A stretch of DNA of 64,000 bases from Gemmatimonadales bacterium. Its GTDB lineage: Bacteria > Gemmatimonadota > Gemmatimonadetes > Gemmatimonadales > GWC2-71-9. Position 1 is the stretch's first letter. The number at the start of each line of letters is the position of its first letter. Under the pieces are notes generated by a model. The model saw nothing but the letters and a program-made list of their open reading frames with translations. It was not told the DNA's origin and ran no database searches. The stretch covers positions 9,829-73,828 of the forward strand of contig JBDIWC010000002.1 in NCBI GenBank assembly GCA_039794085.1. The letters run 5' to 3'. This document shows, piece by piece, positions 1,354 through 64,000 of the stretch. A program made the translations under genes and the position numbers.

Positions 1354-1376
1354 GCCCGTGGTATCGGGGTTTGTAG

Positions 1377-1790
1377 GAAAACCACGAAAAGCACGAAAAC
1401 ACACGAAGGCATGGCGTCGTCATTTTCGTGTCGTTCCGTGTATTTCGTGGTACAAGTGGGAAGGACGGGTTTGGCTTTCCATCAGCGGGGGCCGTAAGCG
1501 ACGCCAGGACTGATCGAGTACGGGTACGAGTACGGGTACGGAAGACGCCCCTTCCTATCGCGGAGTTCGTTGCGCCCTCGCGTCCCTGCGCCCTTGCGTT
1601 AATCTTGCGGTGGGATCGAGCGAGGGGGACGCCGGAACGACGGGTTTGGCCTTCTGTCAGCGGAAGTCGTGAGCGACGTCAGGGCCTGATCGAGTACGGC
1701 TACGAGTACGAGTACGTGCACGGCCCCCCCTGATTCCCTACTCCCGACTCCCTACTCCCTGCTCCCAACCCCTACACCACCGGGGTCGGG
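1377..1790. repeat. composite intergenic repeat element: CACGAA-triplet hairpin (1386-1454), two copies of an approx 85-bp direct repeat each ending in a GTACGR hexamer tract (1472-1555 and 1638-1725), then CCCTACTCCC motifs (1731-1780)
   Basis: arm CCACGAAAAGCACGAAAACACACGAAGG and inverted arm TTTTCGTGTCGTTCCGTGTATTTCGTGG; GTACGGGTACGAGTACGGGTACGG; same modules recur at other loci. Confidence 0.8.
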
Positions 1791-4099: not shown

Positions 4100-4250
4100 G
4101 AATCACCACGTACCCGTACTCGTACATCTGCACGTTGGCTGGGAAGGTATACCCGTGGGTGCGCCGCTTGCGGCGCACCAGGGCCGTGAATGATTCTCTG
4201 CCTTGGGGTGCGCCGCAAGCGGCGCACCCACAAACGCCGGCACACCCACA
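4100..4250. repeat. repeat element: GTAC hexamers plus twin hairpins GGTGCGCCGC-TTGC/AA-GCGGCGCACC (4152-4172, 4205-4225) and CACAAA-type motif
   Basis: two near-identical perfect 9-bp-stem palindromes 50 bp apart; CACAAACGCCGGCACACCCACAAGG. Confidence 0.6.
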
Positions 4251-4254
4251 AGGC

Positions 4255-4605
4255 TCAGGGCTCCTCCGAGGGCGCATCGCGCCGCACGGGATCACCTTGT
4301 TGCATCAGCAAGCGTCCCGTGAAATCGAGCCGGTCCTCGAGCTCAGACACCCGGGCCCGCATCTCTTCGGCGTTCTGCTGGAGCTGCTCATTCTGATCGA
4401 GCACCTGCTGCAGATCCGCACGGTTCTGCTCGGCCCGTCGGCGAATCGTGAGGTGCCGAGCGCCGAGGGCCAAGGCGGCGGCCAGCAGGGCGTGGAGGGT
4501 GGCGTGCGCCGGTTCACCGGGCAAGGCGGCGAACCACACGGAAACGAGGTTGGCGGCGGACAGGGCCCAGGCCGTGGGAATCCAGGCGCGGTGCTTGAAC
4601 CACAT
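4255..4605 (-). CDS. small membrane coiled-coil protein, PspB-like (phage-shock protein B-like)
   Basis: N-terminal hydrophobic segment then coiled coil ADLQQVLDQNEQLQQNAEEMRARVSELEDRL resembling PspB; flanked on both sides by repeat elements. Confidence 0.4.
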   Translation of the reverse strand: MWFKHRAWIPTAWALSAANLVSVWFAALPGEPAHATLHALLAAALALGARHLTIRRRAEQNRADLQQVLDQNEQLQQNAEEMRARVSELEDRLDFTGRLLMQQGDPVRRDAPSEEP

Positions 4606-4865
4606 AGGAACCTCCTGGTGACGAGAGCCCGCGACACCTCTCCCTTCCTTTTCCGTACACCTACACGTACACGTACACGTACTCGTACTCGTACACGATA
4701 GGGCGGATCCCGGAAAAGATATCCTCTTTTCCGTACACGTTCTCGTACACGTTCTCGTACACGTTCTCGTACTCGAACGGCCCCGAATACCCCTGAAGCA
4801 ACTGCCGTGTACGGGTACGGGTACGGGCCCCTCCCCCCTTCTATGCCCTATGTCCTACGTCCTAT
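4606..4865. repeat. hexamer/12-mer microsatellite block: (GTACAC/GTACTC)n, (GTACACGTTCTC)x3, (GTACGG)x3, near-palindrome GGAAAAGATATCCTCTTTTCC
   Basis: read directly: cgtacacgtacacgtacacgtactcgtactcgtacacg; gtacacgttctcgtacacgttctcgtacacgttctcgtactcg; gtacgggtacgggtacggg. Confidence 0.8.
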
Positions 4866-5300
4866 TCACGGCACCAACCCCGGGACGGGATGAAAATCAT
4901 GTCCCAGCAGAACCGTCAGGTCCACCCGACGGAGGGTGTCGATCTTCACGACCACGCGTCCCACGCCGAGCGACCGCACCACGCGGAATCCGGCATCCTT
5001 GTCTCCCCGCCGAACCAGGATCAGGGTCGAATCGAGGATCGTGTCGGCGGTGCCAAAAAATACGACGTCGATTCCGTCCCGGCGCAACTGGGCGGTTCCC
5101 GCCCGGGCCAGCCGGGATCGCCGGGTGGCGTTGAGCACCTCCGCGGTCACCCGCTCGGATCCCCGGGTGGCCACGGCACTCGGCATCGAGGGGGTGTCGT
5201 GGCGGAACAGAATGGCTCCGGCCACGATCACGACACCCGCGGCGATGGCTACAACTGCGGCGCGAGGGATCGAACGGGAGAGGAAACGAGACTGTTCCAA
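4866..5300 (-). CDS. LytR_C (LytR cell-envelope-related C-terminal) domain membrane protein
   Basis: TM helix IPRAAVVAIAAGVVIVAGAILF followed by LytR_C-like domain (VTAEVLNATRRSRLARAGTAQLRRDGIDVV...VDLTVLLGHDF); start uncertain (TTG about 5300 or ATG 5186). Confidence 0.55.
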   Translation of the reverse strand: MEQSRFLSRSIPRAAVVAIAAGVVIVAGAILFRHDTPSMPSAVATRGSERVTAEVLNATRRSRLARAGTAQLRRDGIDVVFFGTADTILDSTLILVRRGDKDAGFRVVRSLGVGRVVVKIDTLRRVDLTVLLGHDFHPVPGLVP

Positions 5301-5851: not shown

Positions 5852-6351
5852 CCCCGACCGATCCTGCTCCGCGGGGGCACGCGACCGGGCGTCACCCGAC
5901 CCGGCGAGGGAGCGTCGGTCTCTGCCAGTGGATTCATCACGCCCAGTTCCTCCAGCTCATGGTGCCAAAAGGTCCGATCCCGGAGGCCGGGATGCGGCAC
6001 GGTCAACCGTTGGTCCGACAGCTCCGCGGAGCCGTGAAGCACCAGGTCACAATCGAGGAGGCGAGGAGCCCAGCGGCTTCCGTCGCGCACCCGTCCCGCA
6101 CACCGCTCGATCTCCAGGAGTGCCTCCAGGAGGTCATGCGGAGAGAGAGTCGTCTCCAGAAGGACCATCTGGTTGAGATACCGGGGCTGGTCAAACCCTC
6201 CCAGCGGCTCCGTTTCCTCGATGCTGCTGCAGGCAACCACCCGGGTTCCGGACAGGCTGGCCAATCCCCTCCGCGCTCCCTCCAGGGCCCCCGCCCGATC
6301 GCCCAGGTTGCTCCCCAGCGCCACGCACGCCCGTACCGTGGTGGTCATCAC
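5848..6351 (-). CDS. folK: 2-amino-4-hydroxy-6-hydroxymethyldihydropteridine pyrophosphokinase (HPPK)
   Basis: [39 protein letters not shown] conserved HPPK motifs; ATGA overlap with upstream gene. Confidence 0.85.
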
Positions 6352-8477
6352 GATTCCAGTGCCAAACTGCGCGCGATGACCTGGAGTTGAGAAGCGAGGA
6401 CCTCCAAGTCCCCGATCACCTTATCCAGATCGGCCTGGCCCCGTCGTGCCGCCGCCGCCTGTCCCGCGACATGATCGGCATCGGACCGGGCGGTCTGGGC
6501 CGCCTCGGCCACCTGCCGGATCTGGGCCTCGAGGCGGTGCCCTTCGCGTTCCTGATCGGTGGAGGCCTCGGCGATGGTCCGGGCCTCCAGCCCCGCAGTA
6601 CGTGCCGAGGACACGATGGCCTCCAGGGCACGGGCCGCCTCGGCGCTGACCTCTCCCACTCCGGACACCACGGTCTGGCCCAATTCCATCTGGGCTGTCA
6701 TGCCCCTCACAGCACTGGCGACCTCCCGCATGATCTGGGCCGCTTCTTCCGTCATTTCGGTGCTCTGCAGCGCGAGCGACCGCACCTCCTCCGCCACCAC
6801 GGCGAACCCCCGGCCCTCGGCACCCGCCCGAGTCGCCTCGATCGCCGCGTTGAGGGCGATGAGGTTGGTGGCGTCGGCCACGTCACGGATCGAGTCGATG
6901 AAGGTGGCGATCCGATCGGCGGCGGCCCCCAGCTCAGCCACCCGCGCCGAGGTGTCCTCCACGAAGCTCCGGACCTGAACCAGGCGGTCGATGGCATCCC
7001 CGATCGCCACCCGGTGGCGGTCGGCCGCATCGGCCGCGGCCCGGCTCGCCGTGGCGGCCCGGCGCCCCCCCTCCGCCGTTTCCGCGGATCGGCGGGTCAG
7101 TTCGCCCATGGTGGTGAGTCCCGCCTGGGCAAAGGTCTCATTGACTCCGATCTTCCGGCGCATTCCCTCCGCGGCCGACCCGAGGGCCACGGCGCTCCCC
7201 CGCAGCGACTGGGAGGCCCCCACCAGGGTCCGCACCTGGCGTTCGATCTGTTCCACCGTCCTCACCAGGGGGCGACGCAGTTCCGCGAGATGAATCGCCG
7301 TGGCGATCTGCCCTCCCAACGCCGCAATGGCGGCGAGATCGCGCGGGCCGTAGTAGTGCCGTTTGTGGTGTTCCAGTTCCAACGTTCCCAGCGTCATGTC
7401 GGCCATGCGCAGGGGGTGGATCACGATGGTCTTCCGGCCGGGGTCCTGGAATCCGAGCCGGGGGTCCTTCTCCGCGTCCGGGATCATCACGGTGATCCCC
7501 CTCTCGACGGCATCACGCCGGATCCGTTCCAGCGCGGGTCCCGCCGGTCCGCGCCCGGGACGTCCCAGCACCGCGCGGTAGAGGAGGGTGGCCTCGCCGG
7601 TCCCGGTGCGGAAGATGGAGTAGTCACCCCAGTCGACCAGGCGATAGGCGAGTCGCTCGATCTCCCCCAGGGCCCCGTGCAGGCTCGTCGTTCCGAGGAC
7701 GGCGGATTGCATCTGGTGCACCTTGTTGAGATCCTCGGCGGCGATGGCCTCCTCCAACAGGGTGCGGGCCAGGAGGCCCATCGCCCCCAGGGCAATGAGC
7801 ACGGCGGGCCACCCGGCGGGGGAGAGCGTCGCCACCGCCCAGACGATGACCGTGGCCGCCAGCAACGTCATCAGATAGGCGACGATCTCCCAGCGCAGGA
7901 TGAACAGGCGTTCCTCGAGCAACAATTTGTCGCGCACCAGCAGGGAGAAGTAGAACAACAACCGGGAAAAGGCGAAGTAGGCGAACACGAAGGCGGCGGC
8001 CGCCGGGAGGTAGTTGATCGAGAGCCCCTCCACGCCCGACGCGACATGCACCTGGGCATAGACGCCGTACGCCGCGGCAAAGGCCAGCACCTCCCGACCC
8101 GAATTGATCGCCGCGGCCACCAGGGGCTTCCGCGCCACCAGAAGGTCACCCAGCAACACTCCGGACCCGAGGGCCAGGACCACGGCACTGGGCGGCGCGA
8201 CCAACGCGCCGACCACCCCCGTGATCCCGCTCTGCGTGAGATACGAGTACTTGCTGAGACGGACCGGCGCGATGCGGAGACCGAATGCCCCCAGCGCCAG
8301 TGCCGTGGTCAGAAGCGGCACCTCCATCCACCGGGTGTCGAGCACGAGGCTCGTTGCCGCCACCACCAATCCCCCGATCCACAGGAGAGTGGCGTAGGTC
8401 GACAGGACCTGACCCACCAGGACGGGGGACCGGGGAGCCCGGGGGGAGTGGGAGGTGGACTCAGAGGAAATAGTCAC
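6348..8477 (-). CDS. membrane sensor: N-terminal multi-TM domain + GAF domain + methyl-accepting chemotaxis protein (MCP) signalling domain
   Basis: about 280 aa of TM helices; GAF-like segment; MCP highly conserved region [32 protein letters not shown]. Confidence 0.8.
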
Positions 8478-9918
8478 CGACTCGAATCCCGTAGCGCTCT
8501 GGGTTGGACACCTTGACGATGGACCGGAGGAAGGCCCCTCCCCCGGGAACCTCCTCGGCGAGATTCACGGTCACTCCGGGGGGAGGTATCACCGCCCCGT
8601 CGGGGTCGACCGTCAGGTGGACCAGGGGGCGATGCAGGAATTCCCGGTTCGGGTTGACGCTGGCCACGACACCGACTTCGAAGGTGTCGAGTACCACACA
8701 GGTCCCCACCGGATAGATCCCGATCAGGTTGATGAGTGCCTTCACGACGACCGGGTCGTACCCGCGCCGGGGATTCTCCCACATTTCCCGCAGCACCTGA
8801 TCGGGCTCGATCGGGGTGGTCTGGTACACCCGGCGGGTCGTGGCGGCATCGAACCCGTCTGCCACGGCCACGATGCGCGAATAGATCCCGAGTTCCCGAG
8901 GGCGGACATGCCGGGGATAGCCGGTGAGGTCGGTCTTCATGTGGTGCTCATGCGCCACCAGGATGGACCGGTAGGGGATTTCGTCGTATCCCCGGAGCCG
9001 GAACAGGGTCAGAGCCCCCCGCCAGGGGTGCTGTTGAATGAGGGTCCACTCGTCCTCCTCCAGCCCCCCGACCTTGTTGAGCACCTCCACCGGGATCCGC
9101 GCCTTGCCGACATCGTGCAGCAGCGCCGTCATTCCCAGATCGTAGAGTTGCAGCTTGGTCAGACCGATCTTCCGGCCGAGGGCCACCGCGAAGATGCAGA
9201 CGTTGACCGAGTGGGTGAAGGTGTACTCGTCGTAATCGCGCAGTGTGGTGAGACCGAGGATCGAGGTTTCATTGTTGAGAACCTGGTCCACGATCATCTG
9301 GACCGCCTGCTTGGCGCGCTTCAGGTTGCTGGTTCGACCGATCCGGATCGAGTTGATCACCTCCCGGGTCACGGCCACCCCATGCGAATAGGTGCGCTTG
9401 GCCTGCTCCCGGGCATGGCGCAACTCATCTGCGGCATCGGAACCGGAGGTGGCGTCCAGTTCCAGCCCACGAACCTTCGATCCCTGCAAACGCTCCAGCA
9501 GCAGTTCCTGACGACGCTCGGCCGGTTCCTGGCCCAGGGTCAGGAAGAGACTCAGCAGGACCTGCCACTCCGAGCGCTCCACCCCGGGATGGATGCGCAA
9601 GACCCCCACCTCAAAGGCTCGAAAGAGCTGCATGATGTGGGAGATCGCCGTGAAGTTGTCGAGCTCCAGGCGCAACCGTGTCGAGTTGACGAAGATGAAG
9701 TCCCCCGCGATGCGTATTTCAATCTCCCCCTCGGCGGTGAGGACCGCCTGGCATTCGCGCTGGAGGTCATCCAGCGCCTTCTGCACCGTGGTGTTTTCGA
9801 GGGGATAGAGCTTGAGGCTGCGCAGCGCGGCGTACAGGGTCAGCAGGAGGGTTCGCCCCGCCACCCGCAGAAACGCCTCATCGCCGTCCCGGTGGACCTC
9901 ACGGTCAGGTCCCGTCAT
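8461..9918 (-). CDS. HD-GYP domain c-di-GMP phosphodiesterase with uncharacterised N-terminal domain
   Basis: LHDVGK ... [12 protein letters not shown] (HD...GYP); ATG at 9918 overlaps stop of upstream gene (ATGA); ORF N-terminal extension rejected. Confidence 0.8.
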
Positions 9919-18170: not shown

Positions 18171-18979
18171 TCCCCCCCCCTTCCCCTCCCCCCGCCCCCC
18201 AGACGGAGGAGCGCCGGCGAAGCGGTCGCATGAGGCGCGTGGTCGTCGTCATTCCCAGCGCCCTGACCCTGGGCAATCTCTTCTTCGGATTCTGGTCCAT
18301 CGTCTCGGCCTATCGGGGGAATTTCGTCTGGGCCGGGTGGTTCATCGTCTTTGCCGCCGTCCTCGACATGCTCGATGGACGGGTGGCGCGGCTCTCCGAC
18401 GCCGGCAGCCGATTCGGGGCGGAACTCGATTCCCTCGTCGACGTCATCTCGTTCGGCGTGGCCCCCGCCTTTCTCATGTACTTTCTGGAGTTCCAGGCCG
18501 CGGGACGCTTCGGATGGGTGCTGTGCTACCTGTACGTGGTCGCCACGGCTGTCCGGCTGGCCCGCTACAACGTGCTCGCCAGCGGGGGGTCGTCCAGCCA
18601 GTGGTTCACGGGCCTCCCCTCGCCGTCGGCCGGCATGACGCTGGCCGTGTATTATCCCTTCAGTCAGACCGAATGGTATCGGGCCTCGTTGGCGTATCTC
18701 GATCTGCAGCACGAGGGGTTGACGGTTCTCCTCCTGCTGCTGGCGGTGTTGATGGTGAGCAATGTGAAATACCCTCGCTGGCCCCGCATCGGATTGCGGA
18801 CCTGGGGCGGCCGCCTCGGCATTCTTGCCCATGCGGTGATCCTCGGGGGTGCCCTTCTGGACCCGGCCGCTTTCCTCTTTCCTCTCGGTCTCGGCTACAT
18901 GGCCTTTGGCATGCTCCGCACCATGGTGCTCGGATTGATCGAACGCAACGACCCCACGTCTCCCCGGAGTGCCGCATGA
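18161..18979 (+). CDS. pssA: CDP-diacylglycerol--serine O-phosphatidyltransferase (CDP-alcohol phosphatidyltransferase)
   Basis: DMLDGRVAR...GAELDSLVD CDP-OH transferase motif, multiple TM helices; start possibly ATG at about 18230. Confidence 0.8.
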   Translation: MVMIPPPSPPPAPQTEERRRSGRMRRVVVVIPSALTLGNLFFGFWSIVSAYRGNFVWAGWFIVFAAVLDMLDGRVARLSDAGSRFGAELDSLVDVISFGVAPAFLMYFLEFQAAGRFGWVLCYLYVVATAVRLARYNVLASGGSSSQWFTGLPSPSAGMTLAVYYPFSQTEWYRASLAYLDLQHEGLTVLLLLLAVLMVSNVKYPRWPRIGLRTWGGRLGILAHAVILGGALLDPAAFLFPLGLGYMAFGMLRTMVLGLIERNDPTSPRSAA

Positions 18980-28339: not shown

Positions 28340-28470
28340 TTCAGGCGTCGGAGGGTCGACCACAAAAAGCACAAAAAAACACAAAAGGTACGATCCCCTG
28401 GCTTCGTCCCCCCTCCGAGGGGCCTCCTGCCTTTTGTGTCTTCTGTGCCTCTTGTGGCCATTTTTCCCAC
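28340..28470. repeat. repeat element, CACAAA variant hairpin: CCACAAAAAGCACAAAAAAACACAAAAGG ... CCTTTTGTGTCTTCTGTGCCTCTTGTGG
   Basis: inverted arms about 28 nt each around a 40-nt GC-rich loop, between convergent purK and metalloprotease genes. Confidence 0.8.
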
Positions 28471-33955: not shown

Positions 33956-33967
33956 CTTCCTGGAGCA

Positions 33968-34329
33968 TGGAGGCGCAGGGAATTGAACCCTGGTCCGAAT
34001 CAAGTTCCAGCACCACGTCTACGTGCGTAGGCCGGTCTTCATGCTTTGGGGCCCGGACGGCGACTCGGCCGGCCTTCCGTACCCCTTCCTCCTGAGATCT
34101 CGCCGCAGACGTCGGAGGACCGCCCTTGGCCAGCCCGGATTTGCGATCCGATGACGACGCCCCGGGCGGGCTTCGAACACCGGAGGTGCTTCAGCGAGCA
34201 GAGCTCAGCTTAAGCAGCCATTGCCAGGTTAGAGTTGGCAAGTAGTGTTTTCCAAACGGTTTAGCCAGGAGCCTGGACCTGGGCACGCTGCGATACCTTC
34301 TTCTGACCCGTCGAAACCGGTCGCCCCCC
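33968..34329 (-). ncRNA. ssrA: tmRNA (transfer-messenger RNA, SsrA)
   Basis: 5' GGGGGCGACCGGUUUCGACGGG (tmRNA consensus), 3' GGUUCAAUUCCCUGCGCCUCCA T-arm/acceptor with G3:U wobble, internal tag ORF GCC AAC TCT AAC CTG GCA ATG GCT GCT TAA (ANSNLAMAA) at 34210-34239. Confidence 0.75.
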
Positions 34330-36330: not shown

Positions 36331-36346
36331 CCCCCCCCCCCCCCCC
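36331..36346. repeat. homopolymeric tract C16 (G16 on coding strand) adjacent to hairpin GGGGGC-TGAAA-GCCCCC
   Basis: read directly: gggggctgaaagcccccccccccccccc, 34-50 nt upstream of the 36297 start codon. Confidence 0.9.
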
Positions 36347-40661: not shown

Positions 40662-40794
40662 GATTACAAGTTACTTATGATGCTTGATCGCCACAAGGAA
40701 CGGCACGGTTCCGGGCATCCTCGTCTCCTCCCCGCTCCAAGGTTTGGTGAACCACCGGTATGCATTTCAGCAAAGCCGCCATGAACGCTGCTCT

Positions 40795-40910
40795 TTAACC
40801 ACGAAATCCACGAAACGACACGAACGCGACGGACCTGACCGTGTTCTTGGGATAGACCGCATCGGGTGGACGGGGCGGAACGGATTTCGTGCTTTTTCGT
40901 GACTTTCGTG
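40795..40910. repeat. repeat element, CACGAA hairpin: CCACGAAATCCACGAAACGACACGAACG ... GGATTTCGTGCTTTTTCGTGACTTTCGTGG
   Basis: inverted arms about 50 bp apart in divergent dus/ptsN intergenic region. Confidence 0.8.
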
Positions 40911-40945
40911 GTTCCATCTCTCCCCGTCTGGTATCTTCACTCCCC

Positions 40946-61400: not shown

Positions 61401-61691
61401 CTCCTGATCCGATGACCGGCGGACCGACCTTGTCCATCTTTCCCCGAGAGCCCGGGTCCGCCCGAGAGAAGCCTGAGAATCTGCCACTCAGGGAGAGCAA
61501 GATCACCGGACCAGTTCCCCTGGACCGGGCTCGAGAAGTACTGGATATACAACATCAGGTGGTAGGTACTATGATATTATCCTACAAGTTGTTATGGCTG
61601 ATTGGCAAAGGTGTCACGAACCAGCTGAATCGCTGACTCTGTTGCCCCGGTCGGCACGGGCGACGCACGCGTCGCCCCTACACGGAGATCC

Positions 61692-62933
61692 CTACTCCCT
61701 GCTCCCTGCTCCCAGCCGATACATCCGGACCCACTCCAGGTCGTCCTCGTCCTGCCAGACGCCGAGAATCCAGTCGGATCCGACGTCCATGGTGCGGAAG
61801 CGGGGGGGGAGACGGACTTCTCCGAGGACCCTCCCGTCCCCGTCGAAGACAACATGAATCCGCGGCATCGTGTCGAGAGCGGCGTAGCGCTCCACCCAGA
61901 GGGTCCCGTCCGAGGCCCGTTTCAGGCCCTGCATCACCGGTTCCAGGTCGGGCACCGGCCAATTATCCCAGGCGGTGGCGATCCGCTCCCGCTGGGGACC
62001 GGGATCCGTGGCCTCGATACGCGCCTCCTTCATCGCCGCATACAGGTCCGGGGGAAAGGCCCTGGTGGGCTCGTCCATCCGGATCAGCCCGGCGAGTGAA
62101 CCATCCCGTCTCCGGCCCTCGATTTCCCAGCGATCCGAACTCATGGCCCAGATCAGGGAATCGGCCACGACGGCCTGCGCCATCCGCCGCACCGGGAGCG
62201 ACATGATTTCGACGGTCCGGATCCGGCTGCCTTCCATGCTGATGGAGAGGAAGGATTCCCCGGCGGGAAGGGTCGTCAGCGTGTCGACCGGACCGGGAGG
62301 GCCCTGGAGAAGTGCAAATCGCGTGGTGTCCCTGATCACACCGGACTGTGGGATGGAGTTGCCACCGAAACTCAATCCGCCCGGCCGCACCAGCCAGGTG
62401 TTGTCCCCCGCATGCGCCAGCACGGTCCGTCGACCACCTCCGCCCGCCTCCCCGGCAAAGGACACCTCGCGGGCCAGGCCGGTCGTGGTAAAGATGCTCA
62501 GACGTGCGTGGGATCCATCCCAGACACCGAAGGAGTCCGCCGGAAGCGGGACGAGCGACACCATCCCCTCGAACTCGCCCGGGCCCCCGCCCTTCCGGCC
62601 GAAGGTGGCCCGCCGGGTTCCATCGGCGTCGAAGATCGCGATCGTGCTGGTTCCGGCACTCGCCACCACAAGGCTCCCGTCCGACAGCCGGTGCGCCCCG
62701 ACGATCCGGAGGAGTTCCCCCTCCCCGGTGACCGGGGCGATCTCCACCAAGGGAATCTCGTCAATCTCCCGCCAGACGACCCCTCCAGCGCTTCCGTTGT
62801 CCACAATGCGGATGCCGGCACTGTCCCGGATCTCGGTGCGGAGCGCGGGGTCATGGCCCGAGCCGGCGGATCCGCCACAAGCGGCGAGGGTGACGCCGAG
62901 CAGGAGTCCGGGAGTGCGCGCACACGAATGCAT
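61692..62933 (-). CDS. lipoprotein with beta-propeller-like (NHL/TolB-like) repeats, unknown function
   Basis: lipobox GVTLAACGG after ATG 62933; repeated G-rich beta-strand blades; stop codon embedded in CCCTACTCCCTGCTCCC motif. Confidence 0.5.
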   Translation of the reverse strand: MHSCARTPGLLLGVTLAACGGSAGSGHDPALRTEIRDSAGIRIVDNGSAGGVVWREIDEIPLVEIAPVTGEGELLRIVGAHRLSDGSLVVASAGTSTIAIFDADGTRRATFGRKGGGPGEFEGMVSLVPLPADSFGVWDGSHARLSIFTTTGLAREVSFAGEAGGGGRRTVLAHAGDNTWLVRPGGLSFGGNSIPQSGVIRDTTRFALLQGPPGPVDTLTTLPAGESFLSISMEGSRIRTVEIMSLPVRRMAQAVVADSLIWAMSSDRWEIEGRRRDGSLAGLIRMDEPTRAFPPDLYAAMKEARIEATDPGPQRERIATAWDNWPVPDLEPVMQGLKRASDGTLWVERYAALDTMPRIHVVFDGDGRVLGEVRLPPRFRTMDVGSDWILGVWQDEDDLEWVRMYRLGAGSRE

Positions 62934-63099
62934 TGAGCGGCCCTTTCGTTGGGATACCGGCGGTTCAGGGTGGCAAGCCCGGGTGAGTAGATCGGAATAT
63001 GCCTCAACCGGGGTTCGATGGCCAGTCCCCCGGCGGAGTCGCGAAGAAGAGGTGAGGGTCACTCCCCTTCAGCCGCCCCAAGAAGGGGTCACGCGAAGC

Positions 63100-64000
63100 C
63101 GCGAAGAGTGCCAATCCGCTCCCCGCCACCCAATAGTGATGGTGACGGGGTCGGGAGGGGCGTTTCGTGTGTTTTCGTGCTTTTCGTGGTTCCGATTCGC
63201 TGGCGCAGGGTTCCACGGCGCGACTCTCGGCGCAACGCGGGAGGGTCATTCCCCCGCCCACAACCCCAAACGGGGTCACGCGAAGACGCGAAGGGGGGGA
63301 AAACGCGGACATCGTCATCGGGCCGGAATCCGGAATGGGCTCGCACGAAGACACGAAGACACGAAGGGGTGGGCATCGACGGGATCATCGTGAACTTCCA
63401 CTCCTCTCCCCTCACTTTTCGGAAGAGTTCACACGAAGGCACGAAGGACACGAAGCCCCCCCCAGCCACCAATTGTGTGATGGTGGTGAGTGTCGGGAGG
63501 GGCCTTTCGTGCGTTTTCGTGTCTTTCGTGGTTCCCATTCAGCACGAGCCGGGCTCTGCACGACTCTGCCCGGTGAGCAAGGGAGGTCACTCCCCGCCCA
63601 CAACCCAGACGGGGTCACGCGAAGACGCGAAGAGTGCCAAGCCACTCCCCACCACCAACGTGGTGGTGGGGATGAGGTCGAAGGGTCTTTCGTGTATTTT
63701 CGTGTCTTTCGTGGTTCCCATTCAGCACGAGCCGGGCTCTGCACGACTCTGCCCGGTGAGCAAGGGAGGTCACTCCCCGCCCACAACCCAGACGGGGTAA
63801 CGCGAAGCCGCGAATGGGGGGGGGACGCGGACACCGTCATCGGGCCGGAATCCGGAATGGACTCGCACGAAGGCACGAAGGCACGAAGGGGTGGGCATCG
63901 CCGGGATCCTCGTGAATTTCCCCTCACTTCTCGGAAGAGCTCACGCGAAGCCGCGAAGAGTGCCAAGCCACTCCCCACCACCAGATTGGCGATGACGGTG
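63100..64000. repeat. mosaic tandem array (3 or more units of about 185-330 bp) of the CACGAAG/CGCGAAG-triplet hairpin modules plus CCACCA..TGGTGG mini-hairpins; continues beyond window end
   Basis: near-identical about 95-bp blocks at 63521-63616 and 63713-63808; arms CACGAAGACACGAAGACACGAAGG, CACGAAGGCACGAAGGCACGAAGG, TTTCGTGTATTTTCGTGTCTTTCGTGG, GTCACGCGAAGACGCGAAG repeated. Confidence 0.85.

Follow-up and report, generated by a model that had tools for sequence, protein, structure and literature searches.

The edge of the 64,000-nt stretch of Gemmatimonadales DNA analysed here (hereafter the window) is a genuine non-coding pile-up of short hairpin repeats extending over at least 1.1–1.2 kb. 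We consider the region a BIME-like cluster of a new short interspersed repeat family, a reading to which we assign a probability of about 0.5. Its building block, an arm of three spaced heptamers, is apparently a widespread, undescribed repeat class of uncultured bacteria and their phages.

Anatomy of the array

The mosaic at 63047–64000 is composed of forward arms (two or three copies of CRCGAAG) and reverse arms (three copies of TTTCGTG followed by GGTTCC). As an initial sequence-only reading had proposed, it is non-coding and built from hairpin arms that also occur elsewhere in the window (Table 1). The doublet CRCGAAG-N-CRCGAAG was found ten times in the window, every time on the plus strand within 63092–63958, with 0.10 matches expected. 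The pair TTTCGTG-NN-TTTCGTG was also found ten times (0.12 expected), four times in the array and otherwise at 1374–1449, 28361 and 40800–40910. The mosaic of hairpin modules is thus real. Forward arms start at 63092, 63279, 63344, 63432, 63618, 63801, 63866 and 63944 and carry CACGAAG or CGCGAAG at 8-nt spacing, the third copy being sometimes degenerated to TGCCAAG. Reverse arms start at 63163, 63505 and 63688, with 9–10-nt spacing between the TTTCGTG copies.

The arms make up four units in which two types alternate, so that the higher-order pattern repeats about every 525 nt. The short type consists of one hairpin, the long type of two solo forward arms and one hairpin. The alternation of unequal units had been recognised before, with a count of at least three that now becomes four. 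Each hairpin of about 110 nt comprises a forward arm, an inner stem CCCC.CCACCA / TGGTGG.GGGG and a reverse arm; the CCACCA...TGGTGG inner hairpins described earlier are hence present. An identical block of 95 nt at a spacing of 192 nt had also been reported. The repeat exists, but it is larger and offset, with 135 nt at 96% identity and a spacing of 183 nt. A second repeated pair, 63265–63403 and 63787–63925, shares 89% identity at a spacing of 522 nt. Open reading frames predicted across the array had been taken for artefacts, which is supported by their GC3 of 0.59–0.68, compared with 0.81–0.88 in the neighbouring genes, and by the lack of a Pfam match.

Table 1 Features of the array, its flank and the isolated hairpins, in window coordinates
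Feature	Position	Strand	Description
Isolated hairpin	1376–1456		Same arm family; between convergent genes
Isolated hairpin, CACAAAA variant	28354–28464	-	Between convergent purK and metalloprotease genes
Isolated hairpin (dusB hairpin)	40793–40917		Between divergent dusB and PTS-EIIA-like gene
Lipoprotein gene	61692–62933	-	NHL-type beta-propeller repeats; start MHSCARTPG..., lipobox LAAC
Lipoprotein-gene 5' leader/promoter region	62934–63046	-	Conserved; GGACTGGCC...GGCATATTCCGATCT...CCCAACGAAAGG; outside the repeats
Unit I, short type	63047–63233	+	Linker and hairpin H1
H1 forward arm	63090–63114	+	CGCGAAG, CGCGAAG, TGCCAA
H1 inner stem-loop	63115–63160	+	
H1 reverse arm	63161–63196	+	TTTCGTG x3 and GGTTCC
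Unit II, long type	63234–63571	+	Two solo arms and hairpin H2
Unit II solo arm, two-unit	63277–63300	+	
Unit II solo arm, three-unit	63342–63368	+	CACGAAG x3
Hairpin H2	63426–63538	+	Forward arm 63430–63456, reverse arm 63503–63538
Unit III, short type	63572–63759	+	Copy of unit I
Hairpin H3	63612–63721	+	Forward arm 63616–63640, reverse arm 63686–63721; perfect inner stem CCCCACCACCA/TGGTGGTGGGG
Unit IV, long type	63760–64000	+	Copy of unit II; cut by window end
Unit IV solo arms	63799–63822, 63864–63890	+	
H4 forward arm	63942–63966	+	Followed by start of inner stem
135-nt block	63497–63631, 63680–63814	+	Two copies

Flanking genes

The array is flanked by rseP-dxr-cdsA on one side and by genes for an NHL lipoprotein, rpsO, pnp and an M16 peptidase on the other, with both rseP and the lipoprotein gene encoded on the minus strand. 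Naming the latter a beta-propeller lipoprotein was reasonable, given its lipobox and its NHL-repeat similarity to PDB 6d69 (E 1.7e-11). The gene has a GC3 of 0.81, and its ORF is also present on Logan contigs. With housekeeping genes and this lipoprotein gene as neighbours, the array has no adjacent cas, integrase or transposase gene, as stated before, and neither an integrase gene nor a cassette array was found near it.

The leader between lipoprotein gene and array is conserved upstream of the orthologue and the paralogue in three related loci (L206, L207 and L209). In L206 (GCA_017973855.1), both NHL-lipoprotein paralogues are preceded by a conserved leader of about 130 nt, GCCGTGGGTGCGGGGGA...CCGCCGGGACTGGCC (4395–4520 and 5870–6000). 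The window gene retains part of it upstream, and the leader may be a regulatory element. At the other end of the gene, tandem heptamers (GGGAGYA)3–4 on the minus strand occur at 61689–61723 and again at 1728–1776. They overlap the stop codons of two minus-strand genes, that of the NHL lipoprotein and the gene at 1772–2752, and their G3N4 pattern could form a G-quadruplex.

The conserved leader is immediately preceded by the array, and in relatives arms are found upstream of the paralogue too. Both observations would fit an operator or enhancer array in which the arms are binding sites of a regulator controlling the adjacent NHL-lipoprotein gene or genes; heptamer direct repeats 8–10 bp apart are typical of multimeric regulators. 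The same arms, however, adjoin unrelated window genes such as purK and dusB and follow stop codons in phage tail operons as well as in numerous genomes. Moreover, array size differs among close relatives between zero and over 1 kb, whereas gene and leader stay conserved. We regard such an operator function as quite improbable.

Extent and reality of the array

The same lipoprotein gene is found in the Logan short-read assemblies SRR28812185 and SRR28812187, which match 62835–63534 with 0–1 mismatch, so that independent assemblies reproduce this part of the window. Their contigs on the lipoprotein side stop where the 135-nt duplicate of 96% identity begins. The far end was reached through the RseP protein (P0038), which a homologue search identified and two further Logan contigs of the same samples (L221/L222) carry; its nearest named homologues, with about 60% identity, belong to Gemmatimonadota and Gemmatimonadales MAGs. 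On both contigs the rseP stop codon is followed by 21 nt and a CTTCGTG x3 arm, and about 95 nt further on by GGAACCACGAAATACACGAAAATGCACGAAA, where the contig ends. The array thus runs past position 64000, as had been supposed, and, because its far end sits 21 nt past the rseP stop codon, it fills the whole spacer between rseP and the NHL-lipoprotein gene. The readable parts, about 955 nt in the window and about 140 nt at the far end, give a lower bound of at least 1.1 kb for the array and of at least 1.2 kb from gene to gene.

A CRISPR array had been discounted from the outset. This holds for the array itself, which in place of a constant direct repeat of 24–48 nt with unique spacers of similar size has mixed direct and inverted repeats, units of 187 and 338 nt and 'spacers' that are themselves repeated. 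It holds for the flanks too, where the genes on either side, rseP-dxr-cdsA among them, include no cas gene.

Short-read assemblies fail to cross the region, as they would if the repeat had been collapsed or mis-joined during assembly. Yet the proximal 490 nt, or their orthologue, are present in three independent data sets (the window, L001/L002 and L209), L221/L222 provide the distal 160 nt with the same module types, and the break points match true repeats longer than 31 nt. An assembly artefact is barely credible.

Local amplification of the units

In a BLAST comparison of one higher-order repeat with all related loci and the remainder of the window, only the 28–31-nt arms matched. The linkers and inner stems matched exclusively the orthologous spacer in the close relative L209 (GCA_041741375.1) and the far-end contigs L221/L222. 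That the arms alone are dispersed, with inner stems and linkers confined to this spacer, indicates local tandem amplification of the array rather than nested insertion of miniature elements. L209 contains the same modules in a different order, on a contig that likewise breaks off within the array; in its proximal hairpin, a forward arm of the CACGAAG type is paired with the reverse arm known from window unit I. In L206, which is more distantly related, the spacer measures 488 nt and holds just two degenerate arms and no array. Among the origins first considered, a repeat-expansion hotspot or satellite-like array accords best with these tandem duplications and the confinement of linkers and inner stems to this spacer and its L209 orthologue. 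Probably one hairpin with its linkers was amplified in place between rseP and the NHL-lipoprotein gene. Likely routes are slippage or unequal recombination at the near-identical arms, in the course of which arm types would have been exchanged.

A cluster of nested MITE insertions had been among the suggested origins, and several features resemble those of a miniature transposable element inserted serially, with the three-heptamer arms as terminal inverted repeats and multi-site transposase-binding ends. Convergent arm pairs with the outer ends CCAC...GTGG look like terminal inverted repeats, dispersed arms can be identical at loci far apart, related genomes differ in whether they carry the dusB hairpin, and arms are found in phages too. 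Against such insertions, target-site duplications are absent in 51 arm pairs: direct repeats in the flanks were at control level (k=5, 1 vs. 0.1 expected; k=4, 3 vs. 0.8 expected), and the excess of inverted flank 2-mers (27 vs. 11) merely lengthens the inverted repeat by 2 nt. Hairpin interiors differ at every locus, the array linkers are undispersed, so that no whole unit or element recurs outside the spacer, different hairpins combine different arms, and solo arms are the commonest form in phages. No transposase-like ORF was located between any arm pair examined. This evidence does not support nested insertions as the origin of the array, and we consider a miniature transposable element unlikely. 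Transposon ends of the Mu/Tn7 multi-site type were dropped for lack of a 5-bp duplication.

Isolated hairpins and other repeats in the window

Outside the array, the dispersed element in the window is only the 28–31-nt arm, at 1380, 28358 and 40797. Arms in this Gemmatimonadota-like genome occur singly or as convergent pairs closing hairpins of about 80–125 nt. The arm at 1381–1408 is identical in 28 of 28 positions to the reverse arm of unit I on the opposite strand, although the two loci are 62 kb apart, and the second arm of the same hairpin resembles one arm of the hairpin at 40797. These matches across loci indicate that arms have been shuffled from one hairpin to another. The window and GCA_041741375 both carry the dusB hairpin, which GCA_017973855 lacks. 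In the two occupied sites the six heptamers show no change, while about 5 of 11 spacer bases differ, at a flank divergence of about 3%. A clean insertion boundary is undefinable because the spacer of the hairpin-less relative does not align.

Intergenic repeats of a second, hexameric kind are found at 4636–4870 and 1459–1716. The former contains (CGTACA)7 and (CGTACACGTTCT)3, followed by (GTACGG)3, at 4654–4827; in the latter, a 175-nt tandem duplication carries (GTACGR)n at 1507–1540 and 1683–1716. A 25-nt inverted repeat, GTGGGTGCGCCGCTTGCGGCGCACC, with 100% complementarity and a 27-nt loop lies at 4155–4231. A homopolymer of 16 C at 36331–36346 and a C-rich run of about 29 nt at 18172–18200 could both be slippage-prone.

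The arm class in uncultured bacteria and phages

The arm is defined by an outer (T)TTAAC or GGAAC followed by three C-R-C-R-purine-rich heptamers with 1–3 unconstrained bases between them. In the genome of the window the heptamers are CACGAAA, CACGAAG or CGCGAAG, and the arm measures 28–31 nt. Metagenome and viral contigs were searched with the exact pattern TTTCGTG-N1-3-TTTCGTG-N1-3-TTTCGTGG, which matched at least 120 metagenome stretches and 82 viral stretches on contigs of 30–69% GC. Exactly three units were present in 82 of 88 viral and 119 of 134 metagenome TTTCGTG sites among the matches listed. A second family with the heptamer CACGGAT (ATCCGTG) showed the same architecture in at least 120 viral stretches, with three units in 110 of the 125 sites listed. 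The outer flank GG|TTAAA is conserved and reads (A-rich)TTTAAC-CACGAAA on the opposite strand, which gives an arm flank consensus of TTTAAC|CACG...CGTG|GTTAAA; spacers of the TTTCGTG family are mostly 'NA'. Further heptamer variants include CGCGAAG, CGCAGAG and CACGAAT, among others, and CACGGAT and CACGAAA arms alternate within one phage operon.

Two control heptamers also matched 41 and 65 viral stretches, in the form of long microsatellite-like or 9-nt-period tandem arrays. The argument for a class therefore rests on the architecture and not on raw counts. As the matches were gathered by exact patterns, family frequencies are biased, and many of the viral contigs may be mutually related.

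Mosaic arrays like that of the window also occur in L031 and L018. In L018 (OIYX01000040.1, 3340–3800), more than ten solo arms in tandem, (CCATTCGTGT)n and TTTCGTG units that each close with GGTTC, occupy the interval between two genes whose translations suggest gcvH and rpmH. The exact 23-mer of the CGCGAAG arm, CGCGAAGNCGCGAAGAGTGCCAA, was found once in 185,579 species genomes, in an Anaerolineales MAG (L003, JANWXR010000050.1). There, a CGCGAAG-arm hairpin at 6700–6800 shares this 23-mer with the window array and lies about 30 nt upstream of a putative dnaA, judged by eye from the N-terminal translation, with a TTATCCAC box nearby. Other tandem repeats adjoin arms in viral contigs, namely (CGTTGGG)14 in L178 (approximately 4240–4350) and (CCTGATTC)4 in L136 (approximately 9420–9465). 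Cultured phages and plasmids gave no arm match, the class is absent from Rfam, and literature searches with exact arm 16-mers returned no relevant paper.

Placement at cistron ends and candidate recognition

Arms are positioned at cistron ends. With solo arms read as CCACGAAA, the upstream neighbour was co-oriented in 69 cases and opposite in 24, with an even 39 vs. 39 for the downstream neighbour. A long co-oriented ORF stops at most 18 nt upstream of 51 of the 170 solo arms, compared with 10 of 170 on the other strand; these orientation statistics derive from crude ORF calling on foreign contigs. Often the TAA of TTAAC is itself the stop codon of the upstream gene. Arms occupy the intergenic gaps of a phage tail module, where they separate tape-measure and tail-assembly genes. 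A search of viral contigs for relatives of the L196 phage tail protein had no hits.

Arms less than 150 nt apart were convergent in 53, divergent in 10 and tandem in 40 cases. Complementarity between the spacers of paired arms was 41.6%, compared with 36.4 ± 5.6% by chance. As spacers are not complementary beyond chance, a pair amounts either to three helices of 7–8 bp with mismatches between them or to two independent arms.

Conserved heptamer cores, free spacers and a copy number fixed at three together suggest a multimeric nucleic-acid-binding factor that would read each arm as a whole by contacting the heptamer cores. The alternation of two heptamer families within one phage operon and the chance-level complementarity of the spacers also favour recognition of the cores. 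Other candidate signals were rejected. Spacing and -10/-12 elements do not fit an ECF-sigma or sigma-54 promoter, the loci are too many for DnaA boxes or an origin, and the sense arms lack the YC dinucleotides of a Rho rut site. CsrA sites fit the CACGGAT family only, and type III antitoxin arrays were dismissed since there is no toxin gene and the repeats are inverted.

RNA folding

The hairpins are far more stable than shuffled sequence, with z-scores of -2.3 to -8.7 overall and of -2.3 to -6.2 for the hairpins of about 110 nt in the array. The isolated hairpin at 28354–28464 folds 18 kcal/mol better as minus-strand RNA. The window's only Rfam match at gathering score is a tmRNA gene on the minus strand (33965–34328, 130.9 bits). 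For the array, Rfam gave no match at gathering score and chance-level matches alone at E ≤ 10, and a scan of 62700–64000 for sigma-70-like promoters and intrinsic terminators revealed nothing above shuffled sequence.

A structured non-coding RNA locus, likewise listed among the first proposals, would be transcribed from the plus strand, antisense or divergent to the flanking genes, into a multi-hairpin RNA. It could possibly bind the CACGAAA/UUUCGUG arms of many mRNAs, as a sponge or as their antisense partner. Across the four hairpin units, all 12 of 12 one-sided arm changes are G-U/A-U exchanges that keep pairing on the plus strand only, units with CGCGAAG arms fold 6–11 kcal/mol better as plus-strand RNA, and two compensatory changes are located within the inner stem. 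The G/A differences may, however, reflect chimeric hairpins of the independently existing CGCGAAG and CACGAAA families, and the whole region folds about equally well on either strand. The outcome of the Rfam search and of the promoter and terminator scan, as well as the missing array in the distant relative L206, also argue against such a locus, which we hold to be rather unlikely.

Comparison with known repeat systems

Among the closest parallels are the REP/BIME elements of enterobacteria and Pseudomonas. These are short extragenic imperfect palindromes located after genes, between co-directional or convergent genes, and they form clusters of alternating orientation with conserved linkers and strain-variable size at which short-read assemblies break. 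Correspondingly, forward and reverse arms alternate with conserved linkers over the four units of the array. The 64 kb of the window contain three isolated hairpins besides the array. REP elements differ in being one palindrome of 20–40 nt with a GTAG head, whereas here three heptamers are spaced, single arms are common, and the outer motif is AAC-CACG in place of GTAG/CTAC. Furthermore, the arm class spans contigs of widely different GC content, occurs in phages and was seen with no RAYT gene.

Intergenic tandem heptamers are known as STRR from cyanobacteria and as TAACTGA repeats from Beggiatoaceae, Cyanobacteria and Bacteroidetes; such repeats are often near start or stop codons and patchy across phyla, and an RNA-binding regulator has been proposed (MacGregor 2015, PMC4679880). 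In contrast to the arms, STRR and TAACTGA repeats have contiguous 7-nt units in copy numbers of 2–43 and unrelated sequences, while the arms have a fixed number of three copies (88–93% of sites), spacers of 1–3 nt, a TTAAC flank and frequent inverted pairing. None of REP/BIME, STRR and TAACTGA repeats shares this three-unit, spaced and flanked architecture.

The pneumococcal BOX (boxA-boxB(n)-boxC), the Correia elements of Neisseria and RUP are similarly modular, hairpin-forming, non-coding and intergenic with variable internal modules. The arms are distinguished from these elements by the absence of a target-site duplication, by interiors unconserved between loci and by the dispersal of the arm only.

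Integron attC sites are segmented imperfect hairpins located immediately downstream of a co-oriented gene's stop codon, and their outer triplets AAC...GTT are their most conserved bases. The arms have AAC...GTT flanks as well and start at stop codons. However, attC sites consist of R and L boxes and not of three repeated boxes, solo arms cannot form an attC, the hairpins stand between housekeeping genes (purK, dusB, rseP), and the array has no ORFs between its hairpins as a cassette or CALIN array would.

The stoperators and start-associated sequences of mycobacteriophages are likewise short and asymmetric, and they recur, co-oriented with transcription, in many of the short gaps between the genes of a phage. 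They are single sites of 13 bp, each tied to a particular phage cluster and its repressor, whereas the arm class is common to bacterial chromosomes and many unrelated contigs.

Proposed function and significance

As members of a BIME-like repeat family, arm pairs would form stable hairpins that punctuate or stabilise transcripts, as REP/BIME elements do, and the array may be a by-product or sink of the system of arm and factor rather than a gene. Two observations count against this reading. Neither a RAYT-like nor another mobilising gene was found in the sequences examined, which leaves the dispersal of the arms unexplained by it, and the eight forward arms of the array, compared with three reverse arms, are antisense to both flanking genes, unlike the co-oriented solo arms.

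A broader reading, which we put forward only tentatively, regards the arm as a conserved cis-acting punctuation signal, bound by a host RNA- or DNA-binding factor in many uncultivated lineages including Gemmatimonadota and Chloroflexota. Phages would copy the arm between the cistrons of their late operons, heptamer families would be interchangeable through their shared ACACG core and three-fold 9-nt spacing, and the array next to rseP would act as a high-copy sink or insulator.

The array itself is probably a by-product, and its value lies in being the most concentrated natural example of the arms. If the class is as it appears, a common and sharply defined signal has gone unnamed by annotation pipelines, Rfam and the literature searched. 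It could explain the recurrent assembly breaks in Gemmatimonadota MAGs and might serve as a host-linking marker for orphan phage contigs. It could also offer a handle on the biology of gene boundaries, that is, on termination, processing, translational coupling and factor binding, in lineages without genetics.
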